From NCBI GenBank assembly GCA_019634025.1, contig JAHQWC010000029.1:1-52336 (forward strand): DNA of 52,336 nt, in the 5' to 3' direction. The translations under genes and the position numbers were made by a program. This stretch comes from Vampirovibrio sp. Its GTDB lineage: Bacteria > Cyanobacteriota > Vampirovibrionia > Vampirovibrionales > Vampirovibrionaceae. The notes below the pieces were generated by a model. The model had not been told where the DNA came from. It was given only the letters and a program-made list of their open reading frames with translations, and did no database searches. Shown here one piece after another: positions 144 through 28,094 of the stretch; within the stretch, counting starts at the first letter, position 1; each line of letters begins with the position of its first letter.

Positions 144-188
144 ATTTAAGTTCCTGCGATTTAAGTTCCTACAATTTAAGTCCCTGCT
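144..188 (+). repeat. Three tandem 15-bp direct repeats just upstream of the first CDS (possible operator or iteron-like site)
   Basis: Read directly: ATTTAAGTTCCTGCG / ATTTAAGTTCCTACA / ATTTAAGTCCCTGCT at 144-158, 159-173 and 174-188. The array ends 28 nt before the ATG at 216. Confidence 0.85.
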
Positions 189-215
189 CCATGCAAAGTT
201 TAGAGGCCCGACGAT

Positions 216-869: not shown

Positions 870-919
870 TACGCCTGCTTACCCACCCTCATCTTACAAG
901 CCAGTATTTAACACTTTCC

Positions 920-1585: not shown

Positions 1586-1847
1586 CGGAGATCGGTTGCC
1601 TTACTTTCTAACACCTGATTCTGCAAGAGTTACAATAAGAAGCCCTGTTCGCCTTTTTCGTTTTTTGAAATCAGAAAAAACAGGTACCATTAATATAACT
1701 CCGTCAACAACATACAACAAATCCAAGGGCGAAACCAACTCATACAGGCCTAGCAGGGCTAGGCAGAATCCCAGGCAGAACGACTGTGAACACGCTATTT
1801 AGATTGCCCAATATCTTATTCTCAACCCGTTTGGAGCATCGCCACAC

Positions 1848-4515: not shown

Positions 4516-4645
4516 CTACAAAACTTTCTGGCGCGAAGGAAGGGACAAAGGCGTATACTTTTTACTTTCCTCTACGATTATACGTAAATCCGCTTTGATT
4601 ATAATCATGGGAACGTTTCCTTGTGATAAATGGCTTGTTTAAACC

Positions 4646-5803: not shown

Positions 5804-5842
5804 GTCTTGTTTGCGATAGAACTTACGCAGAGTGCACTCTGA

Positions 5843-6931
5843 CTATTCGATTAAGGCCCAGCTTGCCGGGGTGCCTTTGGGGACATCTTGGCGAACCCGC
5901 TTGCCCAGCAGGTGATCAAAATACTTGGGCGGTAAGCCTTTGCCAGGACGGATGGACCGAAGGTTTTTTTCGGTGATGGGTTCTCCTTTTTGGAGATCGT
6001 CTGAGATGTATAAAGAGCGACGGAATACCATACTGGAGGTTTCTCCAGGGGTACGCTCGTAACATACCCGGCCCATGGCTTGCCAGGCAGTTTTGGTTTC
6101 TTGGACCAATAGCGCCATTTCAGAAGGCTCTAGGGAAAACGCTGCATCTACCCCGCCTTCGGCTCGGGAGAGGGTAAAGTGTTTTTCAATTACCGTGCCG
6201 CCCAGCGCCACAGAAGCCACTGCGGCGCCCACCCCCAGGGTGTGATCTGATAGCCCGACCTGCACATCAAACATATCCCGCAAGTGGGGAATGGTTCTTA
6301 GATTGATGGTGTCTGGGGAAGCCGGGTAACTGCTGGTACATTTGAGGAGGACGAGATCCTTGCAACCCGCTTTTTTAGCCACATCCACCGTTTCGGCAAT
6401 TTCGGCCACACTGGCCATGCCGGTAGAAATAATGACCGGTTTGCCGGTGGCCACCACCTTGCGGATTAAGGCGTGGTCCGTGTTTTCAAACGAGGCGATT
6501 TTATAGAACGGCACATTTAAGTCTTCTAAAAAATCTACCGCCGTTAAATCAAAGGGCGTGCTAAAGACGGTTAAGCCCAGTTCTTTCCCCCGTTTCATCA
6601 ACGGTTCATGCCAGTCCCATGGGGTATGGGCTTTTTCGTACAGCTCGTAGAGGGAGTGACCCTTCCACAAGCTTTTTTCATCATCAATAAAAAACTCGTC
6701 CCGGCGTAGATCCAAGGTCATGGTTTCTGCGGTATAGGTTTGGAGTTTTAAGGCATGGGCGCCGGATCGGGCTGCTGCTTCTACAATTTCAAGGGCGCGA
6801 TCTAGCGATTGGTTATGATTCCCAGACATTTCGGCAATGATAAACGGTTCATGATCCGGGCCAATAGACCGGTTTTCAATCTGGATGCTTGTCGTTGCAG
6901 TCACTGGAGTCATTGCAGTCATAGAGCGCAT
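5843..6931 (-). CDS. pseI: Pseudaminic acid synthase (NeuB family)
   Basis: 'PFIIAEMSGNHNQSLDRALEIVEAAARSGAHALKLQTY', 'GLSDHTLG', and a C-terminal SAF/antifreeze-like domain 'IRPGKGLPPKY'. Same operon as pseG. Confidence 0.88.
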   Translation of the reverse strand: MRSMTAMTPVTATTSIQIENRSIGPDHEPFIIAEMSGNHNQSLDRALEIVEAAARSGAHALKLQTYTAETMTLDLRRDEFFIDDEKSLWKGHSLYELYEKAHTPWDWHEPLMKRGKELGLTVFSTPFDLTAVDFLEDLNVPFYKIASFENTDHALIRKVVATGKPVIISTGMASVAEIAETVDVAKKAGCKDLVLLKCTSSYPASPDTINLRTIPHLRDMFDVQVGLSDHTLGVGAAVASVALGGTVIEKHFTLSRAEGGVDAAFSLEPSEMALLVQETKTAWQAMGRVCYERTPGETSSMVFRRSLYISDDLQKGEPITEKNLRSIRPGKGLPPKYFDHLLGKRVRQDVPKGTPASWALIE

Positions 6932-6938
6932 TCCTTTC

Positions 6939-7550
6939 TTATTCGGATGCTGTGGCAGCCAGAGCTTTACCCATCAAGTCCTTCACCGGCGTTTGCCATC
7001 CTTGGGACAACAACGGCAGATAGGGCTCCTTATCTTTGAGCCGGTGAACCGATCCTCCTGCGATTTGTGGTGTGGGATGGATCTGTCCGGCAATTATATC
7101 CGGCCAAATTTCTTGAAACAAGGTTTCAATAGCATCTGCCAGTTTTTTATAGCTGGTTTCCAGGGTATCCTGCTCAAGATCCATGGGAACTTCTCGTTGC
7201 GCGAGAATGGATCCGGTGTCCAGGTCTGAATCTACCTGATGAATGGTGACGCCCTTGAGGGTGTTTTCTAAAAAACTCCACAGGTTGGGGTCTGAACCTC
7301 GGTTCCAGGGCAGATATGAGATGTGGAGATTGAGGATGCGATGGGGAAGCCGGTTGATGACAGGGGGACGGATAAGATGTCGATATCCGTAACTCACCAC
7401 AATGTCCGCATTGTTCAATACCGGATCGTCTTCTGATATTTTTTCTTCGGTTCTGACAAGGTTGTGGCCTTGGGTTTTTAGCCAGGCAAATAAGCCAGGG
7501 CGTTCGGGTCCCAGCCATAAAATTGTTGAAGCATTACTGAGAGGCTTCAT
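6939..7550 (-). CDS. Formyltransferase-family protein (Fmt/PurN N-terminal fold)
   Basis: 'NLHISYLPWNRGSDPNLWS' (the N-x-H-x-S-L-L-P-x-x-R-G type motif) and 'GVTIHQVDSDLDTGSILAQ'. Its start overlaps the pseG stop by 4 nt (ATGA), which implies translational coupling. Confidence 0.8.
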   Translation of the reverse strand: MKPLSNASTILWLGPERPGLFAWLKTQGHNLVRTEEKISEDDPVLNNADIVVSYGYRHLIRPPVINRLPHRILNLHISYLPWNRGSDPNLWSFLENTLKGVTIHQVDSDLDTGSILAQREVPMDLEQDTLETSYKKLADAIETLFQEIWPDIIAGQIHPTPQIAGGSVHRLKDKEPYLPLLSQGWQTPVKDLMGKALAATASE

Positions 7551-9098: not shown

Positions 9099-10079
9099 AT
9101 GGAGATTGATGTATTCACCCAGACCATCAAGAATCGCGCGCTGTCGTTGGGATTTGATGTTGTGGGAATTTTGGCGGCAGAGCCAGTAAAGCAACCGGAA
9201 TTTTTACATACCTGGCTGGATCAGGGGTATCAGGCTGGGATGGACTGGATGAAAAACTATATGGACATCCGGCTGAACCCTGCCAGCGAGAAATTGATGC
9301 CGGGGACCAAGAGCATTGTGTGTGTGGCAATGAACTACTATACGCCGGATGCGCCAAACCCGGCCCCGGATGCGGTAAAGATTGCCAAATATGCCCGAGG
9401 AACAGATTACCACCGGGTAATTAAAGACAAGTTGAATGCGCTGTTGAAAGAGATACAAGAGATGCACCCAGGCGTGACGGGCCGAGCATTGACGGACAGT
9501 GCGCCGTTGCCGGAAAAGCCGTTGGCGGTTCAGGCAGGGTTAGGCTGGCTGGGCAAAAACGGGACGGTGATTCACCCACAAAAAGGATCGTTTTTGTTTT
9601 TAGGCGAGCTGTTGCTGGATATTGAGTTGGCGTATGACAACACCCCATTGCCCAACCATTGCGGCACCTGTACCCGGTGTATGGAAGCCTGCCCCACCAA
9701 CGCCATTGTGGCAGACCGGGTGATTGACGCCAACAAATGCATTGCCTATTGGACCATTGAGGCCAAGGGAGAGCCGATTCCACAAAACATTGCAGACAAT
9801 CTGGAAGGCTGGGTGTTTGGCTGTGATATCTGCCAGGACGTGTGCCCGTGGAATCTGAAGTTTGCGGCGCCCACTCCAGAAGAGATGCTGAAACCTCGAC
9901 CTTGGAATATTGCACCCACCGCAACGGATCTGTTAGCTTTAGATGAGGAAGGGTTTGAAGAACGCTACCGGAAGAGCCCACTAAAACGCGCTAAGCTACA
10001 GAATCTTCAGCGTAACGTCCGGGCTGCGGTTCCCAATGCAGTGAGTGCGATGGATCCGTCAGACACATTAGGCGAATAA
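9099..10079 (+). CDS. queG: tRNA epoxyqueuosine(34) reductase
   Basis: 'DYHRVIKDKL', 'GLGWLGKNG', two 4Fe-4S motifs 'CGTCTRCMEACPTNAI' and 'CDICQDVCPWN', and a C-terminal HEAT-like tail. Confidence 0.9.
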   Translation: MEIDVFTQTIKNRALSLGFDVVGILAAEPVKQPEFLHTWLDQGYQAGMDWMKNYMDIRLNPASEKLMPGTKSIVCVAMNYYTPDAPNPAPDAVKIAKYARGTDYHRVIKDKLNALLKEIQEMHPGVTGRALTDSAPLPEKPLAVQAGLGWLGKNGTVIHPQKGSFLFLGELLLDIELAYDNTPLPNHCGTCTRCMEACPTNAIVADRVIDANKCIAYWTIEAKGEPIPQNIADNLEGWVFGCDICQDVCPWNLKFAAPTPEEMLKPRPWNIAPTATDLLALDEEGFEERYRKSPLKRAKLQNLQRNVRAAVPNAVSAMDPSDTLGE

Positions 10080-10201
10080 GCTTACCGTGCAACAATTTGC
10101 TTACAATCCGAGACGCCAAACTACAAAATTGCTACAATAGTCTTGTGAGGAAAAACTGGATTATCAGCACTTCAACAGGTGTGTGAAGGAGGAATATAGT
10201 G

Positions 10202-10378
10202 ATGTCAAAAATGGATGCCAGCCATGGGATTGATGGTGTAGGTGCGGTGGTGATGTTGCCCAAAGCCTTAAGAGGCGGTAAAGACTCAACCCGCAAAACC
10301 ATCTCAACGTTTAAATCGAAGCGACTGCTGTTTTTATTTACCGGCTTGGGGAAGTGGCTGAAGGTCTTTAAGTCTTAA
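10202..10378 (+). CDS. Unannotated small basic protein (58 aa), hypothetical
   Basis: My own translation: MSKMDASHGIDGVGAVVMLPKALRGGKDSTRKTISTFKSKRLLFLFTGLGKWLKVFKS. Strong SD GAAGGAGG ends 9 nt before the ATG. The stop overlaps the convergent EEP gene stop by 4 nt. Below the ORF-track length cut-off. Confidence 0.4.
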   Translation: MSKMDASHGIDGVGAVVMLPKALRGGKDSTRKTISTFKSKRLLFLFTGLGKWLKVFKS

Positions 10379-11367
10379 GATGAAGTTTTCGCATAAAGTC
10401 CAAGGGTAACAATGACCGGTAAGTGATCTGTGCCAAGGTTTACGCCTGTATGGCGAGCAATGGTTTGAAGCTGATGGCTTACTAAAACATGATCGATTGG
10501 GATGCCGACAGGACCAAATTTAGCAGGCCAGCTGGGTTGGAGCCCTTGACCCCATTGGGTGTCGTTGAGTTGCATCCCTGAGAGAATAAGTTGAAACTGT
10601 TTGGCGTAGGGCGTTGTGTTTAAGTCGCCGGCTAAAATGAGGTGAGGGTGGAATTCACCCTGTTGATAGTGTTTGATCCAGTTGTTAATCTGTTTAAATT
10701 CCAGCTGTTCATATTTTTGCGGCATGGGGAGGGGTGGATGGGCGATTAATAAGGTGACGGGGGTTTGATGGACCATGACGTCTGCAACCATAGCGGTTTC
10801 GTTGACCAAGGATGGGTTTGGGCGGGCATGTAGAAACCGATGCTTATTAATGGGGAATTTACTGTAAAGACTGAGGTGTGCGGTCCCTTGGATATGGTGG
10901 GGGTATGGTTTTAGCGCCTCGCTGTTTGTGAGGGCGTTATCCCAGAAGGGGGTTTGTTCGCTAAAACACAGGATATCGGGTTGGGTTTGGCGAATAAATT
11001 CCTCAGTCGCTTCGACATTGTGATTGGTTTTGCCATGAAGGTTGAGGGTGACCAGTTTAAAGGTTTGGTTTTGCGGGGATGAATAGGCCTGGGGAATATA
11101 ATACGGAATTAACGGCTGAATGTTGGTGATGATGCAAGCCGCCAACAGCGTCATTAAACTCATAGACAGCCAGGAGCGCCGGGAAGGGAGCACTAACAAT
11201 ACGAGGAAAACAACCGTTTGAATGGCAAGAAGGTGAACCGTTGCGTGTTGCAACAAGCTATAGGGCCAGGGCAAGGGCATAAACCATTGGGCAACGGTGG
11301 GGACACACAGAATGAGCACCCTTAGCACGCCAAAAAGAACCACGGGGATGAGGAGAAGTCGAATCAC
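10375..11367 (-). CDS. Membrane-anchored endonuclease/exonuclease/phosphatase (EEP) family protein
   Basis: Three or four N-terminal hydrophobic helices, then EEP blocks 'LVTLNLHG', 'DILCFSEQ', 'ILAGDLNTTP' and 'IDHVLVS...GTDHLPV'. Confidence 0.8.
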   Translation of the reverse strand: MIRLLLIPVVLFGVLRVLILCVPTVAQWFMPLPWPYSLLQHATVHLLAIQTVVFLVLLVLPSRRSWLSMSLMTLLAACIITNIQPLIPYYIPQAYSSPQNQTFKLVTLNLHGKTNHNVEATEEFIRQTQPDILCFSEQTPFWDNALTNSEALKPYPHHIQGTAHLSLYSKFPINKHRFLHARPNPSLVNETAMVADVMVHQTPVTLLIAHPPLPMPQKYEQLEFKQINNWIKHYQQGEFHPHLILAGDLNTTPYAKQFQLILSGMQLNDTQWGQGLQPSWPAKFGPVGIPIDHVLVSHQLQTIARHTGVNLGTDHLPVIVTLGLYAKTSS

Positions 11368-11470
11368 AAAGAATTAAATTCCTAGGCTGTTCGTGGAGTT
11401 AGACACTTAATGAATACCACACCCCCTCAACATGTTGAGGGGGTGTGGTAAGTAGTTTACGCGAATACAT

Positions 11471-11573
11471 CGGGGTAGGTAAGAAGGAGGATTGGGTAAA
11501 AACCCAGAAGACAAAAATAATTCCTTCTTACCGAAGGGGCAGAGCCCCTAGAATTAAGTACGCAGGTGCGTAC
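11471..11573 (+). repeat. Family-A structured intergenic repeat, copy 1 (about 100 bp)
   Basis: CGGGGTAGGTAAGAAGG-[variable about 35 nt]-CCTTCTTACCGAAGGGGCAGAGCCCCTAGAATTAAGTACGCAGGTGCGTAC. It abuts the stop codon of the upstream minus-strand CDS. Confidence 0.9.
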
Positions 11574-11941
11574 TAGAATCGGTTCCACCATTTGTAGCCT
11601 TTTTTAAAATAGTCGACAAAGCCGATGGGGGAGCCAAGGACGAAGCCGACGGGAATGGCCACCGGGACGGCAACCAGTTGGGCGGGGGTGAGGTCTTCAT
11701 CGACGATGTATTCGTTGGTGTCACTCACTGCTTCGCCGACTTTTTCGGCGCCGGCGACAATACCGCCTCCCGTACCGGTCACTGCACCGGTGACCAGGCG
11801 TAACGGTAAACTCACGGTGTGCCAGACGGCGGGGTGGTCGGTTTCCCACGGGCCGTCTTCTCCGGCCAGAGCAGGTAGGTTGATGCTGGTGGCCAGAAGC
11901 AGGGTACTGAGGACAAGGCCGGTAAGCTTGGTTTTGTTCAT
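11573..11941 (-). CDS. Small secreted hypothetical protein (signal peptide)
   Basis: Start at the internal ATG 11941 ('MNKTKLTGLVLSTLLLATSINLPALAGE', preceded by GGAGGAACACACC). The ORF-track extension to 12148 lacks coding character. Confidence 0.6.
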   Translation of the reverse strand: MNKTKLTGLVLSTLLLATSINLPALAGEDGPWETDHPAVWHTVSLPLRLVTGAVTGTGGGIVAGAEKVGEAVSDTNEYIVDEDLTPAQLVAVPVAIPVGFVLGSPIGFVDYFKKGYKWWNRF

Positions 11942-12159
11942 GGTGTGTTCCTCCAATGGATTTTTAATCAGTTGAGCGTGGTTCATTACGTTTATTGTAA
12001 GGGGGAACACTTGGGTAGAGGAATGGGGGTATGACAGTTTTGATGTCTGTATGATCTGTGTTGCATTCGCAGGTATTTTCGGCTGGCTGGTTGATAGTCG
12101 GCAAAGCCGACATTGGGGTCCGTTCCCTCCCCCAAACCCCCTCCCCAATTATTTTTTTT

Positions 12160-12199
12160 GGCCTCACTAAAATAGCCTAAAGACTATTTTAGTGAGGCC
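12160..12199. repeat. Perfect 16-bp-stem inverted repeat (GGCCTCACTAAAATAG-8 nt-CTATTTTAGTGAGGCC)
   Basis: Read directly. T8 run on the 5' side of the plus strand. Shares the 'GAGGCC+A-run' module with the family-B repeats, in inverted orientation. Confidence 0.8.
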
Positions 12200-12294
12200 C
12201 TTCATAGAAGAACCCCTAGACTATTGATACCTAGCTATATTACCTGGAAATATTATGAATCAAAGGCATCATAGGCTGCTTTAAAAAGTAAAAA

Positions 12295-12392
12295 GGCCGA
12301 GCAAGCGGCAGTAATGCCGCGTAGCGAGGCCAAAAAAATATCCAGGGCCGGGTATGGGGCCGGACACAGGCCCCAGTGCCAGCTCTGCTGGC
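12295..12392 (-). repeat. Family-B structured element, copy 1 (three hairpins; likely 3'-UTR/terminator module of ffh or a REP-like element)
   Basis: GGCCGAGCAA-GCGGCA-GTAA-TGCCGC-GTAGCGAGGCCAAAAAAATATCCAGGGCCGGGTA-TGGGGCC-GGACACA-GGCCCCA-GT-GCCAGC-TCT-GCTGGC. Lies 40 nt 3' of the ffh stop. On the minus strand the first module reads as hairpin plus T-run. Confidence 0.8.
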
Positions 12393-12431
12393 TATTCTAT
12401 AACGTATATTGGAAACCATTGAAGCCTTAAA

Positions 12432-13910
12432 CTAGCCGAAGGGGAATTTGCCGCCGCCGGGGAGTTTACCACCTGGGAAGCCGCCGGGGAGGCCGCCCAT
12501 ACCGGGAGGCATGCCGCCGAATTGGGACATGTCGGGCTGTTTGTTTTTGCGTTTTTTGTTCTTTTTAGGCATATGCAACCCACCAGGGAGTTTGCCTTTT
12601 TTGGCATCATCGCCCATTTTGGTGAACTGCTTCATCATCATTTTCATTTGGTTAAACTGTTTCAGGAATTTGGAAATGTCTTCGGTTTTCATGCCGCACC
12701 CCTGGGCGATGCGTTGGCGGCGGCTGTTGTCGATGGAATCGGGGTTTTGGCGCTCGTAGGCCGTCATGGAGCTGACCATGGCTTCGATTTTTTTGAGTTC
12801 TTTTTCGCCGCCGTGGGCGATCATTTCTTTCATCTCTTTATTGAGGCCGGGAATAGGAAGCATGCCCAGGACTTGATCCAGGGAGCCCAGCATCTTCATT
12901 TGTTTTTGGATTTTCATGAAGTCTTCTAGGGAGAAGCTTTGCTTGCGCATCTTCTCTTCCATAGCCTTGGCTTCATCCAGGTCAATCGCCTCTTGGGCTT
13001 TTTCCACCAGGCTGAGGACATCGCCCATGCCTAAGATTCGGGAGGCCAGGCGCTCGGGGTGGAAGGCTTCCAGGCCATCTGGTTTTTCGCTGACGCCGAT
13101 GAATTTGATGGGTTTGCCGGTGACCTCGACGACAGAGATGGCGGCGCCGCCTCGGGCATCGCCGTCGAGTTTGGTCATGACGATGCCGGTGACGTCTAGC
13201 TGGGTGTTGAAGGTTTCGGCAACATTGACAGCTTCCTGGCCGGTCATGGAATCGATGACCAGGAGTTTCTCTTGGGGTTTGAGCATGCGTTCGACCATGA
13301 GGAGTTCGGCCATCATGTCGGTATCGATTTGCAGGCGGCCGGCGGTGTCAATGATGAGGGTGTTGTGGCCGTCTGCTTTGGCTTTGTCTAATCCGGATTG
13401 GGCAATGTGGAGGACGTCGGTGGAGCCTTCGACGGTGTGGACGGGGATGTCTACTTGTTTGCCCAGGGAGATGAGCTGGTTGATGGCGGCGGGGCGGTAG
13501 ACGTCTGCAGCGACCAGCAGGGGACTGCGACCCTGTTTGCGGAGTTTGAGAGCGAGTTTACCGGCGGTGGTAGTTTTACCCGAGCCCTGGAGACCGAAGA
13601 GGACGATGATGTTGGGGTGGCCGTCGAGATTGAGGGGTTTGTTTTCGGCCCCGAGGAGCTGGACGAGTTCTTCGTGAACGATTTTGACCAGTTGCTGGCC
13701 GGGCTGGACGTTTTTGAGGACCTCTTCGCCGTCGGCGCGATCTTTGACCCGGGAGATAAAGGCTTTAATGACCCGGAGGCTGACGTCGGCTTCCAGCAAC
13801 GCCCGGCGAACTTCGCGCAGGGCGTCTGACATATTGTCTTGGGTAAGTTGTTTGCCGCCTTTAAGGTTGGAGAAGGCTCCCTGAAGGCGTTCTGAGAGTT
13901 GATCGAACAT
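12432..13910 (-). CDS. ffh: Signal recognition particle protein Ffh
   Basis: N domain 'LSERLQGAFSNLKG', GTPase 'GLQGSGKTTTAGKLA', 'DTAGRL', 'TKLDGDARGGAA', Met-rich M domain, and a Gly/Pro/Lys-rich C-terminal tail. Confidence 0.97.
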   Translation of the reverse strand: MFDQLSERLQGAFSNLKGGKQLTQDNMSDALREVRRALLEADVSLRVIKAFISRVKDRADGEEVLKNVQPGQQLVKIVHEELVQLLGAENKPLNLDGHPNIIVLFGLQGSGKTTTAGKLALKLRKQGRSPLLVAADVYRPAAINQLISLGKQVDIPVHTVEGSTDVLHIAQSGLDKAKADGHNTLIIDTAGRLQIDTDMMAELLMVERMLKPQEKLLVIDSMTGQEAVNVAETFNTQLDVTGIVMTKLDGDARGGAAISVVEVTGKPIKFIGVSEKPDGLEAFHPERLASRILGMGDVLSLVEKAQEAIDLDEAKAMEEKMRKQSFSLEDFMKIQKQMKMLGSLDQVLGMLPIPGLNKEMKEMIAHGGEKELKKIEAMVSSMTAYERQNPDSIDNSRRQRIAQGCGMKTEDISKFLKQFNQMKMMMKQFTKMGDDAKKGKLPGGLHMPKKNKKRKNKQPDMSQFGGMPPGMGGLPGGFPGGKLPGGGKFPFG

Positions 13911-14124
13911 CTGGGCCGGTTCCGGGTTATGGGTTTACGTGTTTACCTTCGTACAAACCGGGGGGGATGACAAGGGATGTGGTAGGTTGTTACGGGAGTT
14001 GGTATTGAATTTGGCTCCAAAATACAGAGTGGTTTTTTGCTGTATTTAGTAAAGTGATGGGGAAGAGTGACTGTCAAATCCTTCAAGTGTGAAAAACTCG
14101 TCACGCTACTCCTTTAAAATTTAC

Positions 14125-14154
14125 TTGATTAATTAGGATAGGTTGGATTATTCT
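14125..14154 (+). promoter_or_regulatory. Candidate sigma70-like promoter for the island operon (TTGATT-18 nt-TATTCT)
   Basis: Hexamers read directly, about 45 nt upstream of the 60-aa ORF. Weak -10, and the AT-rich context gives many look-alikes. Confidence 0.25.
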
Positions 14155-14199
14155 TAAATGCCTTTATCAGGTATGGTCCAAGTTTAAAGAAGATAATTC

Positions 14200-14382
14200 A
14201 TGGATATTTCTAAATTAAGTCATTCTAAATATGTTTCAAAGATTGAGAAGACTAATCAGTTTTACCAATTAACTGCAAAATTTGCTGCCCAAACACAAAA
14301 CACTAAGTTTTATAATAAAGATAATACAAATGATTTTATCGATTTCGATTCAATGAAGACGGGTATCGAGGGTTTAGGTTAG
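14200..14382 (+). CDS. Candidate graspetide (microviridin-like) precursor peptide, 60 aa
   Basis: MDISKLSHSKYVSKIEKTNQFYQLTAKFAAQTQNTKFYNKDNTNDFIDFDSMKTGIEGLG. The N-terminal half is helical and F/Y-containing (leader-like). The C-terminal half is rich in Thr/Ser/Lys and Asp/Glu. First gene of the AT-rich island, co-directional with the ATP-grasp gene. Confidence 0.5.
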   Translation: MDISKLSHSKYVSKIEKTNQFYQLTAKFAAQTQNTKFYNKDNTNDFIDFDSMKTGIEGLG

Positions 14383-14520
14383 TTTTTAATCAGTTTTCAG
14401 GCTTAGATAGTGCTCCTTGGATGAAGCCTAGTTTGCTGATAGAGTGCTGCTTAAATATCAGCACTAGCCGCACAAAACTCAAAAATGCTCTATTTAGACC
14501 CTAGTAAGGAATCAGGACTA

Positions 14521-15597
14521 ATGAAATTTGAGGTTTTTTCTGATCTAAAAGAAGTATCGATCGCTTCCTTATATGATTTAGATGAAGCTAGTATTAAAAG
14601 CTTAGGAGAACAGCTTTATAAATACGGTATCGTTAAGATAAAGCACGATATTGACAGCACGTTGTTAAACAGTTTTAGAGAAGTGGGGTTTTCATTACAT
14701 AAATTACCCTGTCAAGAAAAGGAGAAGCTGACATTTTGTCCTTACATAGGGGAATATACTAATGAATCAAGAGGGTATATTGCTTACGAAAAGTTACCTG
14801 AGTCACCGATAATAGACACTGATATAGAAACATATGTAAAACATAATATGTGGGTATTTTCAGGTGGCCCATTAAATTTATACCCATCTGAAAAACTACT
14901 TCCGTCTGCTAGAAGTATTATTAGAACCAGCCTTAATGAATTGAGACGCACCGGTAATATTATACGGGATTCCTTAATGATCTACTTTGGTGATGAGCAG
15001 AGAAGACTAGAACAAATAACTGCTGCGCAGTTTGATCAATTACATATCCTTTCATTGGAATCTCATAAAGGAATAGATCCTAATAGCTCTAAATTAGATA
15101 AATATTTTCTGCGATTACCAAGCCACAAAGACGTTTACACATTATTTAAGTTGTTGTTGAGTAATCCTATTGGCGGTTTGCAAATTAAGCCTTTAACAGA
15201 AGAAAGGCAAGAGGCAGAAAATTGGTATACCCTTGAAGAGGATGGAGAAGGTTTAGATTATTTCTTTGTTTTCGCAGGAAATTACATGCCACTTTTAACA
15301 GGAAATACTATAAAATCTATTCAGCACAGAGTTATTGGCAATCAAACACAGATGCAAAAAGACCGTTTATCTATTGCTTATGCTTACCGACTCAATATAT
15401 TTGAGCCTTGGGTAAATTTTATCACCGGCCAAATGATAGAGTTTGAAGGGAAGGAGTTGTCTCCGGGGGCATGGTCGCATGTTCTTGGCAAGAATCCTAA
15501 AGCGACCGAAGAAGATTTATACTTAAACCTTCAACAACGTTGGAAGGGATTAAAGAATTTGCACAGCTACGTTAACACATTAGAATCAAGTACCTAA
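14521..15597 (+). CDS. 2-oxoglutarate/Fe(II)-dependent oxygenase (IPNS/2OG-FeII_Oxy superfamily)
   Basis: Facial triad context 'LPSHKDVYTLFKLLL...GGLQIK' (H-x-D), then 'IQHRVIG' (distal His) and 'DRLSIAYAYR' (2OG-binding Arg-x-Ser). Start placed at ATG 14521 (AAGGA 10 nt upstream); the ORF opens at 14485. Confidence 0.75.
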   Translation: MKFEVFSDLKEVSIASLYDLDEASIKSLGEQLYKYGIVKIKHDIDSTLLNSFREVGFSLHKLPCQEKEKLTFCPYIGEYTNESRGYIAYEKLPESPIIDTDIETYVKHNMWVFSGGPLNLYPSEKLLPSARSIIRTSLNELRRTGNIIRDSLMIYFGDEQRRLEQITAAQFDQLHILSLESHKGIDPNSSKLDKYFLRLPSHKDVYTLFKLLLSNPIGGLQIKPLTEERQEAENWYTLEEDGEGLDYFFVFAGNYMPLLTGNTIKSIQHRVIGNQTQMQKDRLSIAYAYRLNIFEPWVNFITGQMIEFEGKELSPGAWSHVLGKNPKATEEDLYLNLQQRWKGLKNLHSYVNTLESST

Positions 15598-15624
15598 CTA
15601 ATGATAGGAATTATGTGTTGAGTA

Positions 15625-16707
15625 ATGACTGTTCTAATTCTTGCTCCTGACTGGGAGCCACATTATCAATATATTCAACCTATTCTTCTTAAGAGGAAGG
15701 TGGATTTTGTAAGGCTTTCAGGGGAATCATACCCAGAGTATTGTGCAGCATCATTTGAGCTTTCAGATAGCAGCTCAAATACTTATTTCCTGCAAGACGG
15801 TAAAAAGTTTTATTCGTCAGATATACTCTCTGTGTGGAATCCTTATCTGACCTCCTCTAAGCCCATTGATGTGAACGATCCTTATCATAAGAAGTCGTTA
15901 GAAAAAGAGTCTGATTATCTGTTGGACGCTTTATATAGAACGATGGATACAGCTGTTTGGGTGAATCATATTGAGGCGGATAAAAGAGCGAACAAACTAT
16001 GCCAATTGACACAGGCGAAAGAAGTTGGTTTTATAGTGCCGGATACCTATATTGGTAATGATGTGGAGCAAGCCAAAAACTTTATTTCAAAGCATTCAGA
16101 CTTGTGTATTAAAAATCTTGCTCTCCCCCATACAATGCGTTCAAAAAATCACTTTGAGAAATTCGTTAGCCATTATCGTTGGGTCAGAGATAGCTTTAAA
16201 AAGCAGAATAAAGTACCTTTATTCTGGTCATTAGAGGAATACTTAAATGCAAATAAGATAAAAGTACCCACAAAGCGAGTCGATCAAAAAACATTATTAG
16301 AAAACATTGATCTGTTGAGTTATTCCCCAGCTATTATTCAGGCTTATATTCCAAAGTTATATGAGTTGAGAGTGACGGTTGTTGGCAACAAGATTTTTCC
16401 TTGTGCGATCTATTCCCAAGAGCATGCTTCAACACAAGAAGACTGGCGGGTTTCTCAAGATGAGATTTCATTTAAACATATTTCTCTTCCTACTGAAATT
16501 GAAGAAAAGTGTTTTCATCTCATGAAAAAACTGAATCTTGAATTTGGCGCCATCGATATGATTGTGACCCCTGAAAAAGAATATTATTTCCTGGAAGTCA
16601 ATACAACGCATGTGGGTTGGGGATATATTGATCATAGAGCCAGCTTGAACATTGGCGAAGCGTTGGTTGATTTGCTGGCCTGCCCTGATGGGAATAAATT
16701 GAACTGA
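15625..16707 (+). CDS. MvdC/MvdD-family ATP-grasp peptide ligase (graspetide maturase)
   Basis: 'MTVLILAPD', 'ILSVWNP', 'ANKLCQLTQAKEVGFIVPDTYIGN', 'YELRVTVVGNKIFPCAIYSQEHASTQEDWR' and 'LNLEFGAIDMIVTPEKEYYFLEVN' parallel the blocks I recall from microviridin ligases MvdD/MdnC. Confidence 0.8.
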   Translation: MTVLILAPDWEPHYQYIQPILLKRKVDFVRLSGESYPEYCAASFELSDSSSNTYFLQDGKKFYSSDILSVWNPYLTSSKPIDVNDPYHKKSLEKESDYLLDALYRTMDTAVWVNHIEADKRANKLCQLTQAKEVGFIVPDTYIGNDVEQAKNFISKHSDLCIKNLALPHTMRSKNHFEKFVSHYRWVRDSFKKQNKVPLFWSLEEYLNANKIKVPTKRVDQKTLLENIDLLSYSPAIIQAYIPKLYELRVTVVGNKIFPCAIYSQEHASTQEDWRVSQDEISFKHISLPTEIEEKCFHLMKKLNLEFGAIDMIVTPEKEYYFLEVNTTHVGWGYIDHRASLNIGEALVDLLACPDGNKLN

Positions 16708-16744
16708 AATAATTAACCTCTGTTGCTGATAGTTACCCAATTTT

Positions 16745-16861
16745 TGTCATTCCCGCGAAGGCGGGAATCCATTCTGCGGAATCGTGAAGAAGCTTTACCC
16801 GGTAGCACCGAAAGATAATGGCAAGTGCTACCAATGGATTCCCGCCTTCGCGGGAATGACA
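16745..16861. mobile_element. 117-bp MITE-like element with perfect 28-bp terminal inverted repeats
   Basis: Left TIR TGTCATTCCCGCGAAGGCGGGAATCCAT (16745-16772) is the exact reverse complement of 16834-16861. Each TIR contains the palindrome ATTCCCGC-GAAG-GCGGGAAT. There is an internal 8-bp stem GGTAGCAC/GTGCTACC. No transposase. Confidence 0.85.
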
Positions 16862-16994
16862 ATCTAACGTTTGAAGACTAACGGCAGAAACACTTTTCCA
16901 GATGAAGTAAATTGACATCCCCTCAAACCTGAATACTTTTTATCCAGGGAAACCAGGAGGTACAACCAAAACAAAAAAGAGGGGAATATAACTT

Positions 16995-17513
16995 ATGAAC
17001 GCCCATCATCTCAGCGAAAAGCAGCAAAAAGCCGTCCGGCTCCTCAGCCGACCAGAAGATTATAAACTCACCCACCAGCAGGTCGCCAAAACCGTCGGCG
17101 TCGATCGCCGCACACTCTTTACCTGGAGAAGAAAGCCCGAATTCCAGCAAGCCATGCGCCTCGCCGCACAAGCCGCCATGCCCCTGGTCATGCAAGATAT
17201 CCACCGCAACCTCTGCGGTCAGGCCGTTCAGGGCGATCTCCAGGCCATTCGCCTGGTCCTCAAACTCTACGGCCAGCTGGATAAACACATGGAGGGTAAC
17301 CTCTGGCCCTACCCCACCAAACAGCACACCGCCCAACCCGATCTCTCCGAACCGGATCCCACCGCCAAAAAAGAAGCCCTCATTCAGTCAGCCTTAGAAG
17401 AAGTCCTGTTTTTCTATGAAGATCAAGACAACCCGCCAAACCCAGTACCCACCCAATTTTCTCAAAGGCCAGTCTTTCAACCGGATCCCAAAGATCCCAA
17501 ATTAAAAATTTAA
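16995..17513 (+). CDS. Phage-type helix-turn-helix DNA-binding protein (terminase-small-subunit-like / phBC6A51-type HTH), likely a mobile-element remnant
   Basis: 'LSEKQQKAVRLLSRPEDYKLTHQQVAKTVGVDRRTLFTWRRKPEFQQAMR' matches the HTH layout common in phage small-terminase/HTH genes. Good SD (GAGGGGA). Pro-rich disordered tail. Confidence 0.5.
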   Translation: MNAHHLSEKQQKAVRLLSRPEDYKLTHQQVAKTVGVDRRTLFTWRRKPEFQQAMRLAAQAAMPLVMQDIHRNLCGQAVQGDLQAIRLVLKLYGQLDKHMEGNLWPYPTKQHTAQPDLSEPDPTAKKEALIQSALEEVLFFYEDQDNPPNPVPTQFSQRPVFQPDPKDPKLKI

Positions 17514-17536
17514 AAAAAGATCCCAAAGATCCCAAA
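17484..17536 (+). repeat. Duplicated 18-mer GATCCCAAAGATCCCAAA (each a 9-bp tandem) spanning the stop codon of the HTH gene
   Basis: GATCCCAAA at 17484, 17493, 17519 and 17528. The two 18-mers are separated by the A/T-rich spacer TTAAAAATTTAAAAAAA. Confidence 0.8.
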
Positions 17537-17575
17537 CTAATTTTGATTCTCTCCCAAAAGAACCTCCTCATACCA

Positions 17576-17818: not shown

Positions 17819-20800
17819 TTAATGCAGCAGGTTAAGAATTTTTTGCCACAGGGAATTATGTTGGTTTACCTCAGCCTCAGCAGGCTGAACAGCCAGTGCC
17901 GACGCAGTATTTTGGCGCGGGACAATCGGCGTAAATGTCGTTTTTGGCGGCGGCACGGTATCCTGTGGAGTAATGGTAGGGTTGCTAGATTGAGGCGTCG
18001 TTTGAACCTTAGACGCAACAGGCTTGGTGCCAATAATTTGGTGGGTGCGGGTGTCCATCACCGCCACAGAAGAACGGGCGCGGGTGGCAATGAAGAGTTG
18101 GTTGTTTTGAGCATCCAACGCCAAACCATAAGGATTGCCGGGCAGAGGGGTGGTTTTATTGACTTGGAGGGTTTGGGTATTAAAGGTAGTAATGGTGTTT
18201 TCCAGGAAGTTGGCAACGTAGGCGGTGTGGGTAGATTCATCGATGACGATACCGCGAGGGCCCGCACCGGTGGGAATGGTGCCGACAACTTTGTCGGTGG
18301 CAGGATCAATGACCGTCACGCCGTCAGCGCCGTAGGTGGTAACAAACAAGTAACCGGCAGATTCATCAAAAGCCGCCTGGACGGGCTTGGCGCCGACGTC
18401 GATGGTATTGATGACTTTACGGGTGGTGGTGTCAATGATAGAGACGGAGTTGCTACCAAAATTAGCCGTGTAGGCTTTGGTGCCTTGGACGTTAACCACA
18501 ATGTTTTTAGGCCGTTGGCCCACGTTAATTTCGTCCAGGATGTCGTAGGTGGTGGCATCAACCACGCTGACGGTGTGGTTATTGGTGTTAGCAACATAGA
18601 GACGATTGGTGGGTCGGTGCAGGGTAGTGCTGGTAGGGCCTCGGCCAGGGCCAAGGGGAATGGTAGCAACGACCTGCTGGGTGTTGGGGTTAATGACCGT
18701 GACGGTATCGCCATAGGTATGGCTGACGTAGGCAACGTTGCCGGTGTCAGTACTAGCCAACTGGAAACCACCGTTTTGGTAAGCGATAGTGGGGAAATGG
18801 TTGGTAAGGGTATTAGACACCGGGACAAAGCCGGGCTCTTGAGGGAGCTGGTGGGCGATTTGGGTGGTGTCGATATGGGCAAAGTTGTAATCATACTGCT
18901 GAAGCTGTTGGGTTGGTTCGGCTTGTTGAACAAGGCTGTTGTCCCCTTCGGGGAGCTGCTGAAGCGGAGAGGGGTCAAACCCGTTATCAGGGTTGGGCAA
19001 AGTAGTAAGGGTCAAGGTGCCATTACCATCCACAGCCACAGCGCCGTCTTGAACAATACCGCCGCTGACGCCAGCGACATTAGCAGTAATGGCGATCTCG
19101 GCGCCATCACCAAAAATGGCGCCGGTATTCACAGAATTACCCGCATTAATGGTGAGGTTTTTGGCCGTCACCCACTGAGGACCGTTGGTCAGAGTGGCAG
19201 TATTGGTGTTACCGGAAAGATCTGCAGTGGTAGCGCCGGCGCCTTCGCCAAAGTTCCAGCCACCAGCCAGATTCGTCTCAGGTCCGGTCACAACCGTGCC
19301 TTGACCACTGTTATAGCTCGCTTGAACCTGTGCGGTAGACAAATCGGTATTGTAAATCCTAACTTCATCCATATACCCGTGGAGGTTTTGACCACCACAA
19401 CACTGCCGGGCGCCAATGCGAAGGTCGTTGGCCGTGCTAAGAATATTGCCGGTTTCAGCACCCGCCGGAGCAATGGTTTCCAGCAATGTACCGTTTTGGT
19501 AGAACGTCCAATTTGTCCCGTCATACACAAAAGCCGCATGCACCCAGTCGCTGGCGGTTTTAGCCTGGGTGCCGCCCCAAGACCAACTTCCACCCGATAC
19601 CGTATCTACTGCAGCTTGGTAGAGGTTGCCATTAACAGCATATTCATAGACACCCTCTTTGTTGACGATCATCTCGGACGTGTTAGTAAGGAGATTGATC
19701 CAGGCTTCAATGGTCATGGTGTCGTTGGTGATATCGAGACTGGGAGAATTGAGAGCTATCAGATGATCGTTGCCGCCGTCAAAGAAAAGCGCGTCACGGC
19801 CCAGAAAGACGGACTGGCCAGTAGCAATATAGTTGCCATTGGTGTTGAACGTAAGATTATAAATGCCGGCTGCACCAACCTGACCGGTGAGATCAATATC
19901 GCCGATAAGGGTGATATCGTTATTGAGACTGGCGCTGCCAATGCTGACGGTGTTGGCCGTAATACGCCCCAGCTCTGCAGAGGAGACATCGAGACGAGTA
20001 CCGGCAACATCGTTATTATCCACAGCGCCAGAAACGGCAATGCCGGGGTCGCTTGTAGAGGGAAGGAGAGAAACGGTACCGGTGGTGCCAGCATCGATGG
20101 CGTTATTAATATCCACGGTGGCGCCGGTAAGGGAAATATCGCCACCATTTGAGGTAATCGTAGCGCCGACGGTAATGCCGCCAACATCGTCACTGCCGCC
20201 CGCACCGACACCGGATGCATCGGCAATAAGATTAATATCACCACCATTGGTAGTCAGGGCGGAGGTGATATCAATGTCGTTGCCTGCCCTGAGGGTGAGA
20301 GAATTACCCGCGGTAACGCCGTTGAGGGTCCAGGGGGTTTCTACAGAGATATCGTTGGAGGCTTCCAGTAAGACGTTGGCAAAGCCGTTGAAGCTGGAGG
20401 CGAGAAAGACGGATTCGCCGCCACTGTTATCGGCGTCGGTGTATGGCACCGTGGCGCTACCCGCCGGACCGGCGGCGCGGATACGAATGTCAGTAGGATC
20501 AATCAGGATAGTTCCATCGGCGCCGTTATTTGCCTGCCCGAAAGCAGTACCTGCAAACAGGACAGTATCCACAGCACTAAGTTCGATGAAGCCACCGTCG
20601 CCGGAGATATCACCACCTCGGGCATCCACCACGGCGTTTTGCTCAAAGGTGGTGTCGCCGTCAGACCAAACCAGAATCTCTCCACCACTGCTGTTTTCGC
20701 CATTACCTTTGGCCGAGGTGAGACTGCCTTCCCTTAAGGTTACCTGGTTGCTGGCGTTAATATCAATGAACCCACCGTCCACATCGGTCTTACCGTCTGC

Positions 20801-21679
20801 AATGAGGCGGCCCTGTTGTTCCACCACGTCGCCCTGAATGGTGATGCTGCCGTTTTTGTCGTTGATATGGGTGGCCTGGATAACGCCGTCTAAATTGACC
20901 ACCTGGGACAAGAGCTTGTCCTGAACCTTCTCGTGAAGTTGAGCTTGGAGGTTGATAGTATTGGCGGTAATGTCGCCGGTGTTGGTAATGGATTTTTGGA
21001 TCTGGGCGACCTCTTGCTGTAAGACTTCATCTACAGTGACATCCAGGATCACATTGTTTGCCAGATGGACCCGAACCTGATCACCCACAGCCAGATGAAT
21101 CTGGCCGTCTGGAGCGGTGAGGGATCCACCGTTGGTGACAGACTGACTGATGAGGGTGATAAAGCCACCCGGGGTGGTTTCGATGACGCCGTTGTTAAGG
21201 ATGGCAGCAGGTTGATCCGAGGGCTGAAGCGCATCTGTCGTAAATAGCCATGAGCCGTTTGGGTTACCGAGGTAATGTTGGTTTTGAATGGGGAGGGTAC
21301 TGGCCAAAAAGCCGCCGGTATTAACCTGAGCAGTGGCGGACAAGGTGATGCCTGCAGGGTTAACCAAAAGCACCTGACCATTGCTGTTGAGGGCACCACT
21401 GATGAGACTGTTGCCACCGAGGACTTGGTTGAGGATGCTGGAGGTGGTGTTGGGCAGGAAGAAATTAACGGTTTCGCTGGCGCCCACGTTGAAGGTTTGG
21501 TAATTGACGATGGCCTGGTTGGATTTGGAGGTAACGTTGAGCACCGAGCCGGCTTCTTGAATGTGGACATCGCCAGAGACGACCTGCCATCCGGCAGGCA
21601 GGGCATAGGCACTGTGGGTATGAGCCGACAACACACTGAGCAAACCCAGGAGAACCTGAACCACAAATGCTTTTTGCAT
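17819..21679 (-). CDS. Large secreted TPS-domain (filamentous-haemagglutinin N-terminal domain) exoprotein with beta-helix repeats, a LamG/ConA-like domain and a C-terminal YVTN-type beta-propeller
   Basis: Signal peptide 'MQKAFVVQVLLGLLSVLSAHTHSAYA' (start 21679; the ORF track extends to 21832). TPS block 'SNQAIVNYQTFNVGASETVNFFLPNTTSSILNQVLGGNSLISGALNSNGQVLLVNPAGI'. LamG-like 'ALFFDGGNDHLI...MTIEAWINL...MDEVRIYN'. About seven 'YV.N...N.VSVID..T..V' blades. Confidence 0.85.
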   Translation of the reverse strand: MQKAFVVQVLLGLLSVLSAHTHSAYALPAGWQVVSGDVHIQEAGSVLNVTSKSNQAIVNYQTFNVGASETVNFFLPNTTSSILNQVLGGNSLISGALNSNGQVLLVNPAGITLSATAQVNTGGFLASTLPIQNQHYLGNPNGSWLFTTDALQPSDQPAAILNNGVIETTPGGFITLISQSVTNGGSLTAPDGQIHLAVGDQVRVHLANNVILDVTVDEVLQQEVAQIQKSITNTGDITANTINLQAQLHEKVQDKLLSQVVNLDGVIQATHINDKNGSITIQGDVVEQQGRLIADGKTDVDGGFIDINASNQVTLREGSLTSAKGNGENSSGGEILVWSDGDTTFEQNAVVDARGGDISGDGGFIELSAVDTVLFAGTAFGQANNGADGTILIDPTDIRIRAAGPAGSATVPYTDADNSGGESVFLASSFNGFANVLLEASNDISVETPWTLNGVTAGNSLTLRAGNDIDITSALTTNGGDINLIADASGVGAGGSDDVGGITVGATITSNGGDISLTGATVDINNAIDAGTTGTVSLLPSTSDPGIAVSGAVDNNDVAGTRLDVSSAELGRITANTVSIGSASLNNDITLIGDIDLTGQVGAAGIYNLTFNTNGNYIATGQSVFLGRDALFFDGGNDHLIALNSPSLDITNDTMTIEAWINLLTNTSEMIVNKEGVYEYAVNGNLYQAAVDTVSGGSWSWGGTQAKTASDWVHAAFVYDGTNWTFYQNGTLLETIAPAGAETGNILSTANDLRIGARQCCGGQNLHGYMDEVRIYNTDLSTAQVQASYNSGQGTVVTGPETNLAGGWNFGEGAGATTADLSGNTNTATLTNGPQWVTAKNLTINAGNSVNTGAIFGDGAEIAITANVAGVSGGIVQDGAVAVDGNGTLTLTTLPNPDNGFDPSPLQQLPEGDNSLVQQAEPTQQLQQYDYNFAHIDTTQIAHQLPQEPGFVPVSNTLTNHFPTIAYQNGGFQLASTDTGNVAYVSHTYGDTVTVINPNTQQVVATIPLGPGRGPTSTTLHRPTNRLYVANTNNHTVSVVDATTYDILDEINVGQRPKNIVVNVQGTKAYTANFGSNSVSIIDTTTRKVINTIDVGAKPVQAAFDESAGYLFVTTYGADGVTVIDPATDKVVGTIPTGAGPRGIVIDESTHTAYVANFLENTITTFNTQTLQVNKTTPLPGNPYGLALDAQNNQLFIATRARSSVAVMDTRTHQIIGTKPVASKVQTTPQSSNPTITPQDTVPPPKTTFTPIVPRQNTASALAVQPAEAEVNQHNSLWQKILNLLH

Positions 21680-22174
21680 GACCCCGCACACGGAATTAAA
21701 CAGCCCAAAGAGCCGGGCAAGGCCCGGGACGAAATCTTCTTTGAGGACCGTCCAGGTAATGAGCCGGCCCCCGGAAAACAGCAAGAACCGATGGCAATTG
21801 CTGCCGCTGCGGATGAGTTTATGGTGTTGCAATGGATTTACCTCGGCAATTTGAGGTGTTCAGCATCTTCACGGCTAATTGAGTATCGGCAACCCATGTG
21901 GTGATTTCCATCGAAAGGACTAGATCTCCATAGAATGGAGGAGACAGATTAGGGTGACAGTTACCAACGAGAGTAACCCGTATTTTCAAACGCTTGTGTC
22001 GCTTGTATTTAGATGCGATTTGCGTAAACCGACGTCATGCATTACAATTGTCGTGTGAGTGAATCCAGCCAATAGGCTTTTGTTTAGGTTGAACCAACTT
22101 TTAGTCGCGTCGTCCTAAATTGACTGCGCAGACAATTGTGTGAACAAGTGTGAGAACACCGTGGAGGATGTGCC

Positions 22175-27494: not shown

Positions 27495-27573
27495 AGGACT
27501 TTACGATTGCCTCACAATAACCTATCTTCTTGGACTTTTAGTTTCGGATTTTAATCTGACAGCATAGTTAGCC

Positions 27574-27676
27574 CGGGGTAGGTAAGAAGAAGGAATAGCT
27601 GGAAAGCTAAGTGAAATAGAGAAATTCCTTCTTACCGAAGGGGCGGAGCCCCTATAATTAATACGCATGTGCGTAT
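27574..27676 (+). repeat. Family-A structured intergenic repeat, copy 3
   Basis: CGGGGTAGGTAAGAAGAAGG-[variable]-TTCCTTCTTACCGAAGGGGCGGAGCCCCTATAATTAATACGCATGTGCGTAT. Confidence 0.9.
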
Positions 27677-28094
27677 CATTTCTCAAACAAATATGTGCAC
27701 AACAGCCCCCGAATGATACAGGGATCTATATAAATTAAAACATTTTGAGCAGGGAATTGCCTCATCCGATATACCGAAGATAGGCTCTTTTTATAAAAAT
27801 TAACGATATTTTGTGCCTCGATTGTTGTTACTACATCCCATCAGAAATCAAGTTCCTCATGGAAAAGGATTCCCCTTTTCAATTTTTCAGGTACACTTCT
27901 TAATTGATTCACTAAATCGTCAATTAATTGACTAAATAGATTCGTGAGTCGACTGGGGGTATAAGTTGCGATTTGTGCGTTGTGTGCACAGATTGTTTTG
28001 TTTTACTGGTTTTGTTTTTTGCTTTTTGCATATTCCAATCGTGTAGGCCGGAGGTTTTTATTTGGCTTCCCAATCGGCGGAAACGCTTTTGAAA

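Follow-up and report, generated by a model that had tools for sequence, protein, structure and literature searches.

The stretch of DNA analysed here (52,336 nucleotides of contig JAHQWC010000029.1, assembly GCA_019634025.1, from Vampirovibrio sp.; referred to as the window below) contains an AT-rich island at 14001..16710 with three co-directional open reading frames (ORFs), all on the plus strand. They code for a 60-aa peptide, an Fe(II)/2-oxoglutarate (2OG) oxygenase and an ATP-grasp ligase. In our view, the island probably came in by horizontal transfer and represents a minimal cassette of the graspetide class of peptides that are ribosomally made and modified after translation (RiPPs), made up of a candidate precursor, an oxygenase and a ligase.

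The island stands out by its base composition. Its G+C content (GC) is 0.361 (36.1%) against 0.501 (50.1%) across the remaining window, where 500-bp windows show a standard deviation of 0.033 and a minimum of 0.382. Windowed GC revealed no second multi-kilobase low-GC stretch in the 52 kb. The GC at third codon positions (GC3) is 0.28 in the peptide gene, 0.32 in the oxygenase gene and 0.36 in the ligase gene, compared with 0.59–0.70 in ffh, queG, comM, the gene with a two-partner secretion (TPS) domain and the gene with a helix-turn-helix (HTH) domain. Since both measures lie far below those of the neighboring genes, the island is compositionally foreign, and it was probably acquired horizontally. 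An earlier reading of the letters alone (the sequence-only reading) had already seen a sharp GC drop at about 14.0–16.7 kb between ffh and a repeat, with three co-directional ORFs inside it, and the numbers bear this out; in windowed GC and codon usage the island deviates, and the peptide gene matches the enzyme genes.

Ligase, oxygenase and candidate precursor

The third gene of the island (15625..16707, plus strand) encodes a protein of 360 aa, which NCBIfam, PDB sequence and fold comparisons assign to the graspetide-type ATP-grasp macrocyclases (MvdC/MvdD family). It is matched by the NCBIfam models TIGR04185 (MvdC; 184 bits, E 4.5e-54), TIGR04187 (157 bits, E 8.8e-46), TIGR04184 (MvdD; 142 bits, E 2.4e-41) and grasp-with-spasm (102 bits), while the competing models for RimK and glutathione synthase reached 37 bits (E 1.7e-9) and 17 bits, respectively. 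For TIGR04185 and TIGR04184, the score stays under the equivalog cut-off, and the protein is therefore a divergent member and not an orthologue of MvdC or MvdD. It is at most 39% identical to any protein found, and Pfam alone gave sub-threshold matches to MvdD-N, RimK and others. All of its PDB sequence matches are graspetide ligases (MdnB 4.5e-31, AMdnB 8.4e-31, CdnC 2.4e-24, MdnC 1.1e-22, PruB and PsnB). A structure predicted with AlphaFold2 (AF2; mean predicted local distance difference test (pLDDT) 88.8, predicted template modelling score (pTM) 0.87) had AMdnB, MdnC, CdnC, MdnB, PruB and PsnB as its top 32 Foldseek matches (E 1e-26 to 1e-16, target TM 0.78–0.89), with RimK, LysX and ArgX next in the ranking at about E 1e-13 and 12–14% identity. 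A RimK/GshB-like identity was rejected on the NCBIfam, PDB sequence and fold searches. By sequence and by modelled fold, the enzyme is thus predicted to be a divergent graspetide-type macrocyclase and not a RimK, GshB or LysX, in agreement with the grouping proposed by the sequence-only reading.

The residues that are invariant in 26 relatives are kept in this ligase (K124, K163, E247, R249, D311, E324 and N326), and it has a D-W-R loop at D273-R275; the D(F/W)R motif is essential in PsnB. The ATP/Mg residues are present too. Judged by its position only, R249 probably corresponds to Arg213 of PsnB. The motifs quoted before, MTVLIL, ELRVTVVGNKIFPCAIYSQEHASTQEDWR and FGAIDMIVTPEKEYYFLEVN, are all present. 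An insertion of 45 aa (about residues 168–215) is also found in several relatives that have no linked oxygenase, and is therefore not specific to the ligase subclade discussed below.

The middle gene (14521..15597, plus strand) codes for an Fe(II)/2OG oxygenase of the PF03171 type with 358 aa. An alternative start at 14485 would give an ORF of 370 aa (14485-15597, plus strand); the ATG at 14521 is the likelier start, because it is preceded by AAGGAA, matches the public form of the protein (P0106), and residues 1–14 of the structure model are disordered. The gap to the ligase gene is 27 nt, an operon-like spacing. The PF03171 match (E 5.5e-7) is above the gathering score, and a match to DIOX_N is weak. 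The iron/2OG motif HxD...H...RxS is represented by H214-K-D216, H281-R-V and R294-L-S296, and in plant DOXC enzymes the residues aligned with H214, D216, H281, R294 and S296 are the iron and 2OG ligands. The AF2 model (pLDDT 81.7, pTM 0.84) shows a double-stranded beta-helix fold, whose matches are thymine-7-hydroxylase (T7H; E 3e-18), CC_0200, a homologue of isopenicillin N synthase (IPNS), anthocyanidin synthase (ANS), the ethylene-forming enzyme (EFE), T6ODM and GA2ox, at 16–19% identity, as well as TropC. Pfam match, motif and fold agree with the earlier identification of the gene, which had been based on the letters HKD, HRV and RLS.

This oxygenase is nearly an orphan. A word-indexed search of 5.8 billion proteins returned the query itself as the only match, and HMMER, run exhaustively against 1.84 billion cluster representatives, brought up seven relatives, with three proteins, query included, at E < 1e-30. 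PF03171 is matched by all members of the resulting family (8/8) and PF13640 by none (0/8). When the family alignment was used as a profile, the only additional matches were eukaryotic DOXC enzymes, and tblastn with the oxygenase against 72,556 plasmids gave no match. The alignment showed that HxD...H...RxS is kept in all eight members, and since the catalytic and 2OG-binding motif is intact family-wide, catalysis is expected. Compared with the IPNS/T7H/EFE class, the oxygenase clade stands out by a PGAW segment conserved at the C-terminus and by its long terminal helix.

The first gene (14200..14382, plus strand) encodes the candidate precursor peptide of 60 aa, MDISKLSHSKYVSKIEKTNQFYQLTAKFAAQTQNTKFYNKDNTNDFIDFDSMKTGIEGLG, which was recognized by its ORF, codon usage and position. 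When the AT-rich spacer (384 bp) is shuffled, an ORF of 60 codons turns up 4.4% of the time, and ORF length alone is weak evidence for coding. With a codon-usage score of 0.264 per codon, the peptide ORF is close to in-frame chunks of the two enzyme genes (0.279 ± 0.086) and far from off-frame chunks (-0.42 ± 0.17) and from its own five other frames (-0.17 to -0.74). The ORF thus carries the same coding signature as both enzyme genes of the island. An identical 60-aa protein was found in the NCBI-derived part of a public protein collection. The spacer between the peptide and oxygenase genes is no more structured than its shuffles (z = 0.51), and an attenuator stem-loop in it was rejected for that reason.

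We propose a split of the peptide into a leader of about residues 1–30 and a core of about residues 31–60. The latter, QTQNTKFYNKDNTNDFIDFDSMKTGIEGLG, contains four Thr, one Ser and three Lys as well as four Asp and one Glu, i.e. eight possible donors (Thr/Ser/Lys) and five possible acceptors (Asp/Glu) for ring formation; there is no Cys and no Pro in the entire peptide. This core composition fits a graspetide. The spacing T35-x5-D41 would correspond to that of the Thr-Asp ester in microviridin.

Related loci and the linkage of the three genes

The linkage of oxygenase, ligase and small peptide recurs in a second locus, which we call L083 (positions 1-5000 of the 8-kb contig JAHLSW010049436.1, assembly GCA_020357715.1). 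Its ligase gene (3343-4440; TIGR04185, E 1.1e-50) encodes the best match found to the window ligase, with 39% identity over the full length. The gene for P0108, the second-closest oxygenase relative (1965-3110; 31% identity, E 4.7e-35), is convergent with the ligase gene at a distance of 233 bp. Upstream of the ligase gene by 18 bp, and with a good ribosome-binding site, lies a 60-aa ORF (4459-4641) whose product ends in ...SDGCICGC. A further gene (523-1908) codes for an orphan protein of 461 aa, for which Pfam, NCBIfam, PADLOC and the PDB gave no match. As in the window, the cluster forms a low-GC island (30–38%) beside a flank of about 50% GC. The genes are convergent in L083 and co-directional in the window. 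Since the linkage is kept at identities of 31% (oxygenase) and 39% (ligase) and in a different gene order, it has survived rearrangement and deep divergence. An oxygenase gene of the L083 type is also found in sequencing run SRR12681089, alongside the window island; the two cassettes are therefore present in the same sample and possibly share a genome. The tetranucleotide correlation between L083 and the window (r = 0.77) is inside the ranges of both the self and the non-self controls.

The closest relative of the oxygenase, P0107 (30% identity, E 3.8e-37), is encoded in a high-GC locus of the Logan assembly of SRR23018250 (L082). There, positions 2308-6945 hold genes for a 66-aa peptide, a 480-aa protein of the metallo-beta-lactamase (MBL) fold and P0107, followed by an ATP-binding cassette (ABC) exporter gene. 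The 66-aa peptide has a type-2 lantibiotic leader of the mersacidin/lichenicidin type (TIGR03898, E 8.9e-19, above the cut-off) and a core rich in Cys and Pro. The contig shows no LanM, and upstream there is a gene for an IS3-type transposase. The locus may represent an uncharacterized RiPP type. The 461-aa orphan of L083 is unrelated to the MBL-fold protein.

RiPP contexts are thus shared by the window enzyme and its two closest relatives in the oxygenase clade, P0107 and P0108. Together with the fact that two of these three oxygenases accompany the same ligase subclade in different gene orders, this is the strongest evidence for a functional link.

The third ligase of the subclade, on a 1.9-kb contig (L001), shows 36–38% identity and also has an ORF of 62–64 aa directly upstream. 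In both of the closest ligase homologues, the gene is thus preceded by an ORF of 60–64 aa. Among the upstream ORFs of ligase relatives in general, a PFxxxF-like leader and an acidic, hydroxyl-rich tail are common. In a tblastn search of L001-L081 with oxygenase and peptide, neither L001 nor any of the 80 genome loci yielded a relative, and a metagenome scan with the alignment of the ligase subclade returned one uninformative 1.1-kb fragment.

One observation concerns the lineage of the host. The end of the window (48800-52336) is syntenic with positions 9700-13100 of a contig of GCA_029866025.1 (L090) at 52–60% amino-acid identity (tblastx), and no other locus showed synteny with the window in this comparison. 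The same contig carries a distant relative of the oxygenase (P0111) about 0.5–4 kb from the syntenic block. This hints at an enrichment of the oxygenase family in the lineage of the host.

Boundaries and surroundings of the island

On its left side, the island is bordered by ffh (12432-13910, minus strand; SRP54 domains), which is divergent from the peptide gene. The intergenic region (13911..14199, plus strand) presumably holds the promoter of the cassette, and a consensus promoter scan found no plus-strand match in it. Promoter-like matches over 13900-17100 were not above the shuffle expectation, and terminator-like matches were all on the minus strand; hence there is no plus-strand terminator after the ligase gene.

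The right edge is marked by a MITE-like hairpin of 119 nt (16744..16862; MITE, miniature inverted-repeat transposable element) that starts 36 nt past the stop codon of the ligase gene. It consists of a perfect 30-nt inverted repeat with the arms 16744-16773 and 16833-16862 and a GTCATTCCCGCGAAGGCGGGAATCC core, and folds with -82.9 kcal/mol (z = -8.9). It may serve as transcript end or stabilizer. The sequence-only reading had called it a MITE. That label is plausible; mobility is not supported, as the element is present as a single copy in the window. Its terminal repeat was not found in any of the 92 fetched loci either. The Logan assembly of run SRR12681089 includes a 2568-bp contig that is identical to window 14203-16770 and ends inside the first hairpin arm, at base 16770.

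Beyond the hairpin, an isolated ORF of 172 aa (16995-17513) has host-like GC and an insertion sequence (IS) transposase-type HTH domain (PF13022, E 2.5e-17), with no adjoining gene for a transposase catalytic domain. A 22-nt direct repeat, GATCCCAAAGATCCCAAATTAA, spans the 3' end of this ORF (17484-17505 and 17519-17540). We found no direct repeats flanking the island and neither tRNA genes nor Rfam matches in the window. None of the island proteins had a PADLOC match, and a defense system as explanation for the island was rejected on this basis.

Two more genes of the window deserve mention. The minus strand of 17819-21832 encodes a 1337-aa protein with a TPS domain, Laminin_G_3 and a C-terminal beta-propeller, which looks like a large secreted adhesin or exoprotein. 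A gene of the tryptophan halogenase family (26316-28000; PF04820, E 4.6e-31) adjoins the only other short patch of low GC (27501-28250, GC 0.38–0.42).

Proposed pathway, rival explanations and known systems

The sequence-only reading had considered an oxygenase-tailored graspetide as not described. This did not hold up, since two such systems have been published. SmaO/SmaX (group 18, JACS 2025, PMC12186529) convert Asp to aminomalonate, with SmaO carrying out beta-hydroxylation of Asp on the linear peptide. According to Carter et al. 2026 (PMC13097080), CorC produces the 5-hydroxylated Lys isopeptides of corallotide (group 15, Corallococcus); it also binds CorB, which is fully active only in its presence. 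The same study mentions oxidative enzymes of low frequency in a survey of 17,967 graspetide clusters.

For the window cassette, we propose that the product of the 60-aa gene is the precursor and that its N-terminal half would be the leader docking on the ATP-grasp ligase. Using ATP, the ligase would phosphorylate side-chain carboxylates of Asp or Glu in the core and then close omega-ester rings with Thr or Ser and/or omega-amide rings with Lys. The oxygenase would oxidize the same peptide, most likely by hydroxylating a side chain of the core, either before cyclization, as with SmaO, or after it, as with CorC. Removal of the leader and export, if any, would then depend on host functions. That the peptide is a substrate of both enzymes, which residues are involved and in which order the enzymes act is what we infer from the analysis. 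The cores linked to these oxygenases differ: the window core is rich in Asn and Asp, the one in L083 ends in ...DGCICGC, and the one in L082 is rich in Cys and Pro. Having no obvious target residue in common, they do not allow the site of oxidation to be predicted. As a more tentative suggestion, the window oxygenase and its two closest relatives might form a very rare, hitherto unrecognized clade of the IPNS/T7H fold that has been recruited to more than one RiPP class (graspetides in the window and in L083, the lanthipeptide type in L082) and that installs a modification new to the graspetide scaffold, e.g. a hydroxylation of Asn, Asp, Lys or an aliphatic residue, a desaturation or an oxidative cross-link. 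In this view, the oxygenase may also have co-evolved with a ligase of changed core-binding motifs.

A number of observations weigh against the interpretation as a graspetide cassette with a dedicated oxygenase. The candidate precursors of the window, L083 and L001 show no sequence similarity in BLAST or MAFFT, with no conserved columns, so that the conservation of the 60-aa ORF beside homologous ligases, on which the sequence-only reading had counted, applies to its size and position (L083, L001) and not to its sequence. No leader motif in common with related precursors was found for the window peptide, which has only QFYQLTAKF, without the Pro of a PFxxxF-type motif. The synteny of the triad is likewise confirmed in part: the linkage recurs in rearranged form in L083, and by tblastn the oxygenase is absent from all 80 genome loci that encode ligase relatives (0/80), as well as from the 1.9-kb contig of L001. 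Among the more distant members of the oxygenase family, no ATP-grasp gene adjoins those of P0109-P0112, and no RiPP gene could be identified near that of P0113; the structural neighbors of the oxygenase are all small-molecule enzymes. The island is devoid of protease, transporter or exporter and immunity genes; the absence of the former two had been noted before. Finally, the ligase itself departs from its relatives at two sites (window 15832-15846 and 16597-16623, ligase residues 70–74 and 325–333). It has VWNPY, with Pro-Tyr at 73–74, where MdnB aligns VWTRR, i.e. the Arg pair of the near-invariant VWNRR is gone, and the loop after the Mg-binding E-x-N reads NTTHVGW instead of NPNGQW. Judged by position and conservation only, one residue of the pair probably corresponds to Arg72 of PsnB, a contact to the core peptide that is conserved across 12 graspetide groups. 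The departures are paralleled in the L083 ligase (WNLR and NARRATW), and they mean either altered substrate handling or a defect.

These departures are also a point in favor of a different role for the oxygenase. Peptide and ligase could be a graspetide pair for which the oxygenase is mainly an obligate partner or activator of the ligase, similar to CorC, with or without hydroxylating the product. Both ligases with a linked oxygenase deviate at WNRR (WNPY and WNLR) and at NPNGQW (NTTHVGW and NARRATW), which are nearly invariant elsewhere, and with the probable Arg72 counterpart in the WNRR pair, this could reflect dependence on a partner. However, the full catalytic and 2OG-binding motif is kept family-wide, and the window enzyme (PF03171) belongs to a different family than CorC (PF13640), and we think a role mainly as partner or activator unlikely. 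Just as unlikely in our view is that the oxygenase is a passenger carried along on the island, with a small molecule or some other protein as its substrate and no part in peptide maturation. The small-molecule enzymes among its best structural matches, the contexts of P0109-P0113 and its absence from the 80 other ligase loci would be in line with this; yet the gene sits between those of precursor and ligase, 27 nt from the latter, its linkage to ligase and peptide is kept in L083 despite the divergence and the other gene order, and its closest relative P0107 belongs to another RiPP cluster.

It is also conceivable, if rather improbable, that the cassette is left over from mobile DNA and is inactive or in decay. 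The loss of the conserved Arg pair, the lack of accessory genes and the MITE-like repeat and isolated IS-type HTH ORF next to the island could be taken as signs of decay, but the three ORFs are intact and of full length relative to homologues, the peptide ORF has kept its coding signature, the catalytic residues of both enzymes are in place, and identical DNA is present in the assembly of a second sequencing run. Hardly to be expected is an ATP-grasp enzyme of the RimK/GshB type that does not act on a ribosomal precursor. Such an enzyme would agree with the weak, sub-threshold Pfam matches (RimK included) and with the label "RimK-type" that some sources give to relatives. Against it stand the 102–184 bits of the NCBIfam RiPP maturase models compared with 37 for RimK, the graspetide macrocyclases that account for all PDB sequence matches and the 32 best fold matches, and the presence of the D(F/W)R loop and of a conserved Arg at a position like that of PsnB Arg213. 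We therefore retain the graspetide cassette as the favored interpretation.

Among known systems, CorABCD is similar in that a graspetide synthetase is encoded together with a dedicated, divergent Fe(II)/2OG oxygenase, CorC being almost confined to its cluster architecture. It differs in several respects: CorC belongs to PF13640, while the window enzyme is a PF03171 protein with an N-terminal domain of the IPNS/T7H type; the island has no CorD with a beta-lactamase fold; the window precursor is a non-repetitive peptide of 60 aa, in contrast to the large corallotide precursor with its five repeats and KIVAD motifs; and the host is not Corallococcus. In the accessible co-occurrence tables of the 2026 survey (PMC13097080), PF13640 is the sole 2OG family, and neither PF03171 and PF14226 nor the peptides of the window and L083 were found in the accessible supplementary material. 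As far as we could check, an oxygenase of the PF03171/DIOX_N type in a graspetide cluster has not been reported.

The SmaA/B/O/X system also has an Fe(II)/2OG oxygenase in a graspetide cluster, and SmaO acts on the precursor. SmaO-SmaX pairs span several RiPP classes, as the window oxygenase clade appears to do with its graspetide and lanthipeptide-type leaders. Unlike the Sma cluster, the island has no HD-domain SmaX, no leader with a GG motif and no PCAT transporter, and its peptide has no DG/GD motif; it is by these cluster features that we distinguish the island from the Sma system. The microviridin system MdnA/MdnB/MdnC (group 1) provides the closest solved ligases by sequence and fold (TM 0.8–0.86), and it has in common with the window a precursor gene located before the ligase gene and a core rich in Thr, Lys and Asp. 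It differs by having two ligases instead of one, with only about 22–25% identity to the window ligase, which also lacks the Arg pair found in VWTRR, and by the PFFARFL leader, TxKYPSDWEEY core, acetyltransferase and ABC transporter that are all missing from the island.

Uncharacterized PF03171 oxygenases have been described in lanthipeptide clusters (Walker et al. 2020, PMC7268733). They represent the same Pfam family beside RiPP precursors, without an ATP-grasp ligase; P0107, whose gene follows that of a peptide with a lantibiotic-type leader, resembles this arrangement. In fold, iron triad and RxS motif, the window oxygenase is similar to the IPNS/thymine-7-hydroxylase/EFE class (DIOX_N + 2OG-FeII_Oxy). 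Known members of this class, to which it is 16–19% identical, use small molecules or a free tripeptide and not ribosomal precursors.

Graspetides are a fast-growing class of RiPPs in which secondary tailoring has been characterized only recently, with the two 2OG-oxygenase cases of 2025 and 2026. With the cassette comes a third oxygenase family, probably unrelated to the other two, in a compact form of three genes and about 2.5 kb that should be simple to make and express, and L083 can serve as a divergent second cassette to compare it with. Should the oxygenase act on the peptide, this would mean new chemistry on the graspetide scaffold and a function for a near-orphan clade that is also found beside a lanthipeptide-type precursor. 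If it compensates for the missing Arg pair of the ligase, it would extend partner-dependent graspetide biosynthesis. In comparison with the known systems, we would class the cassette as a graspetide cluster whose tailoring enzyme comes from a new family.

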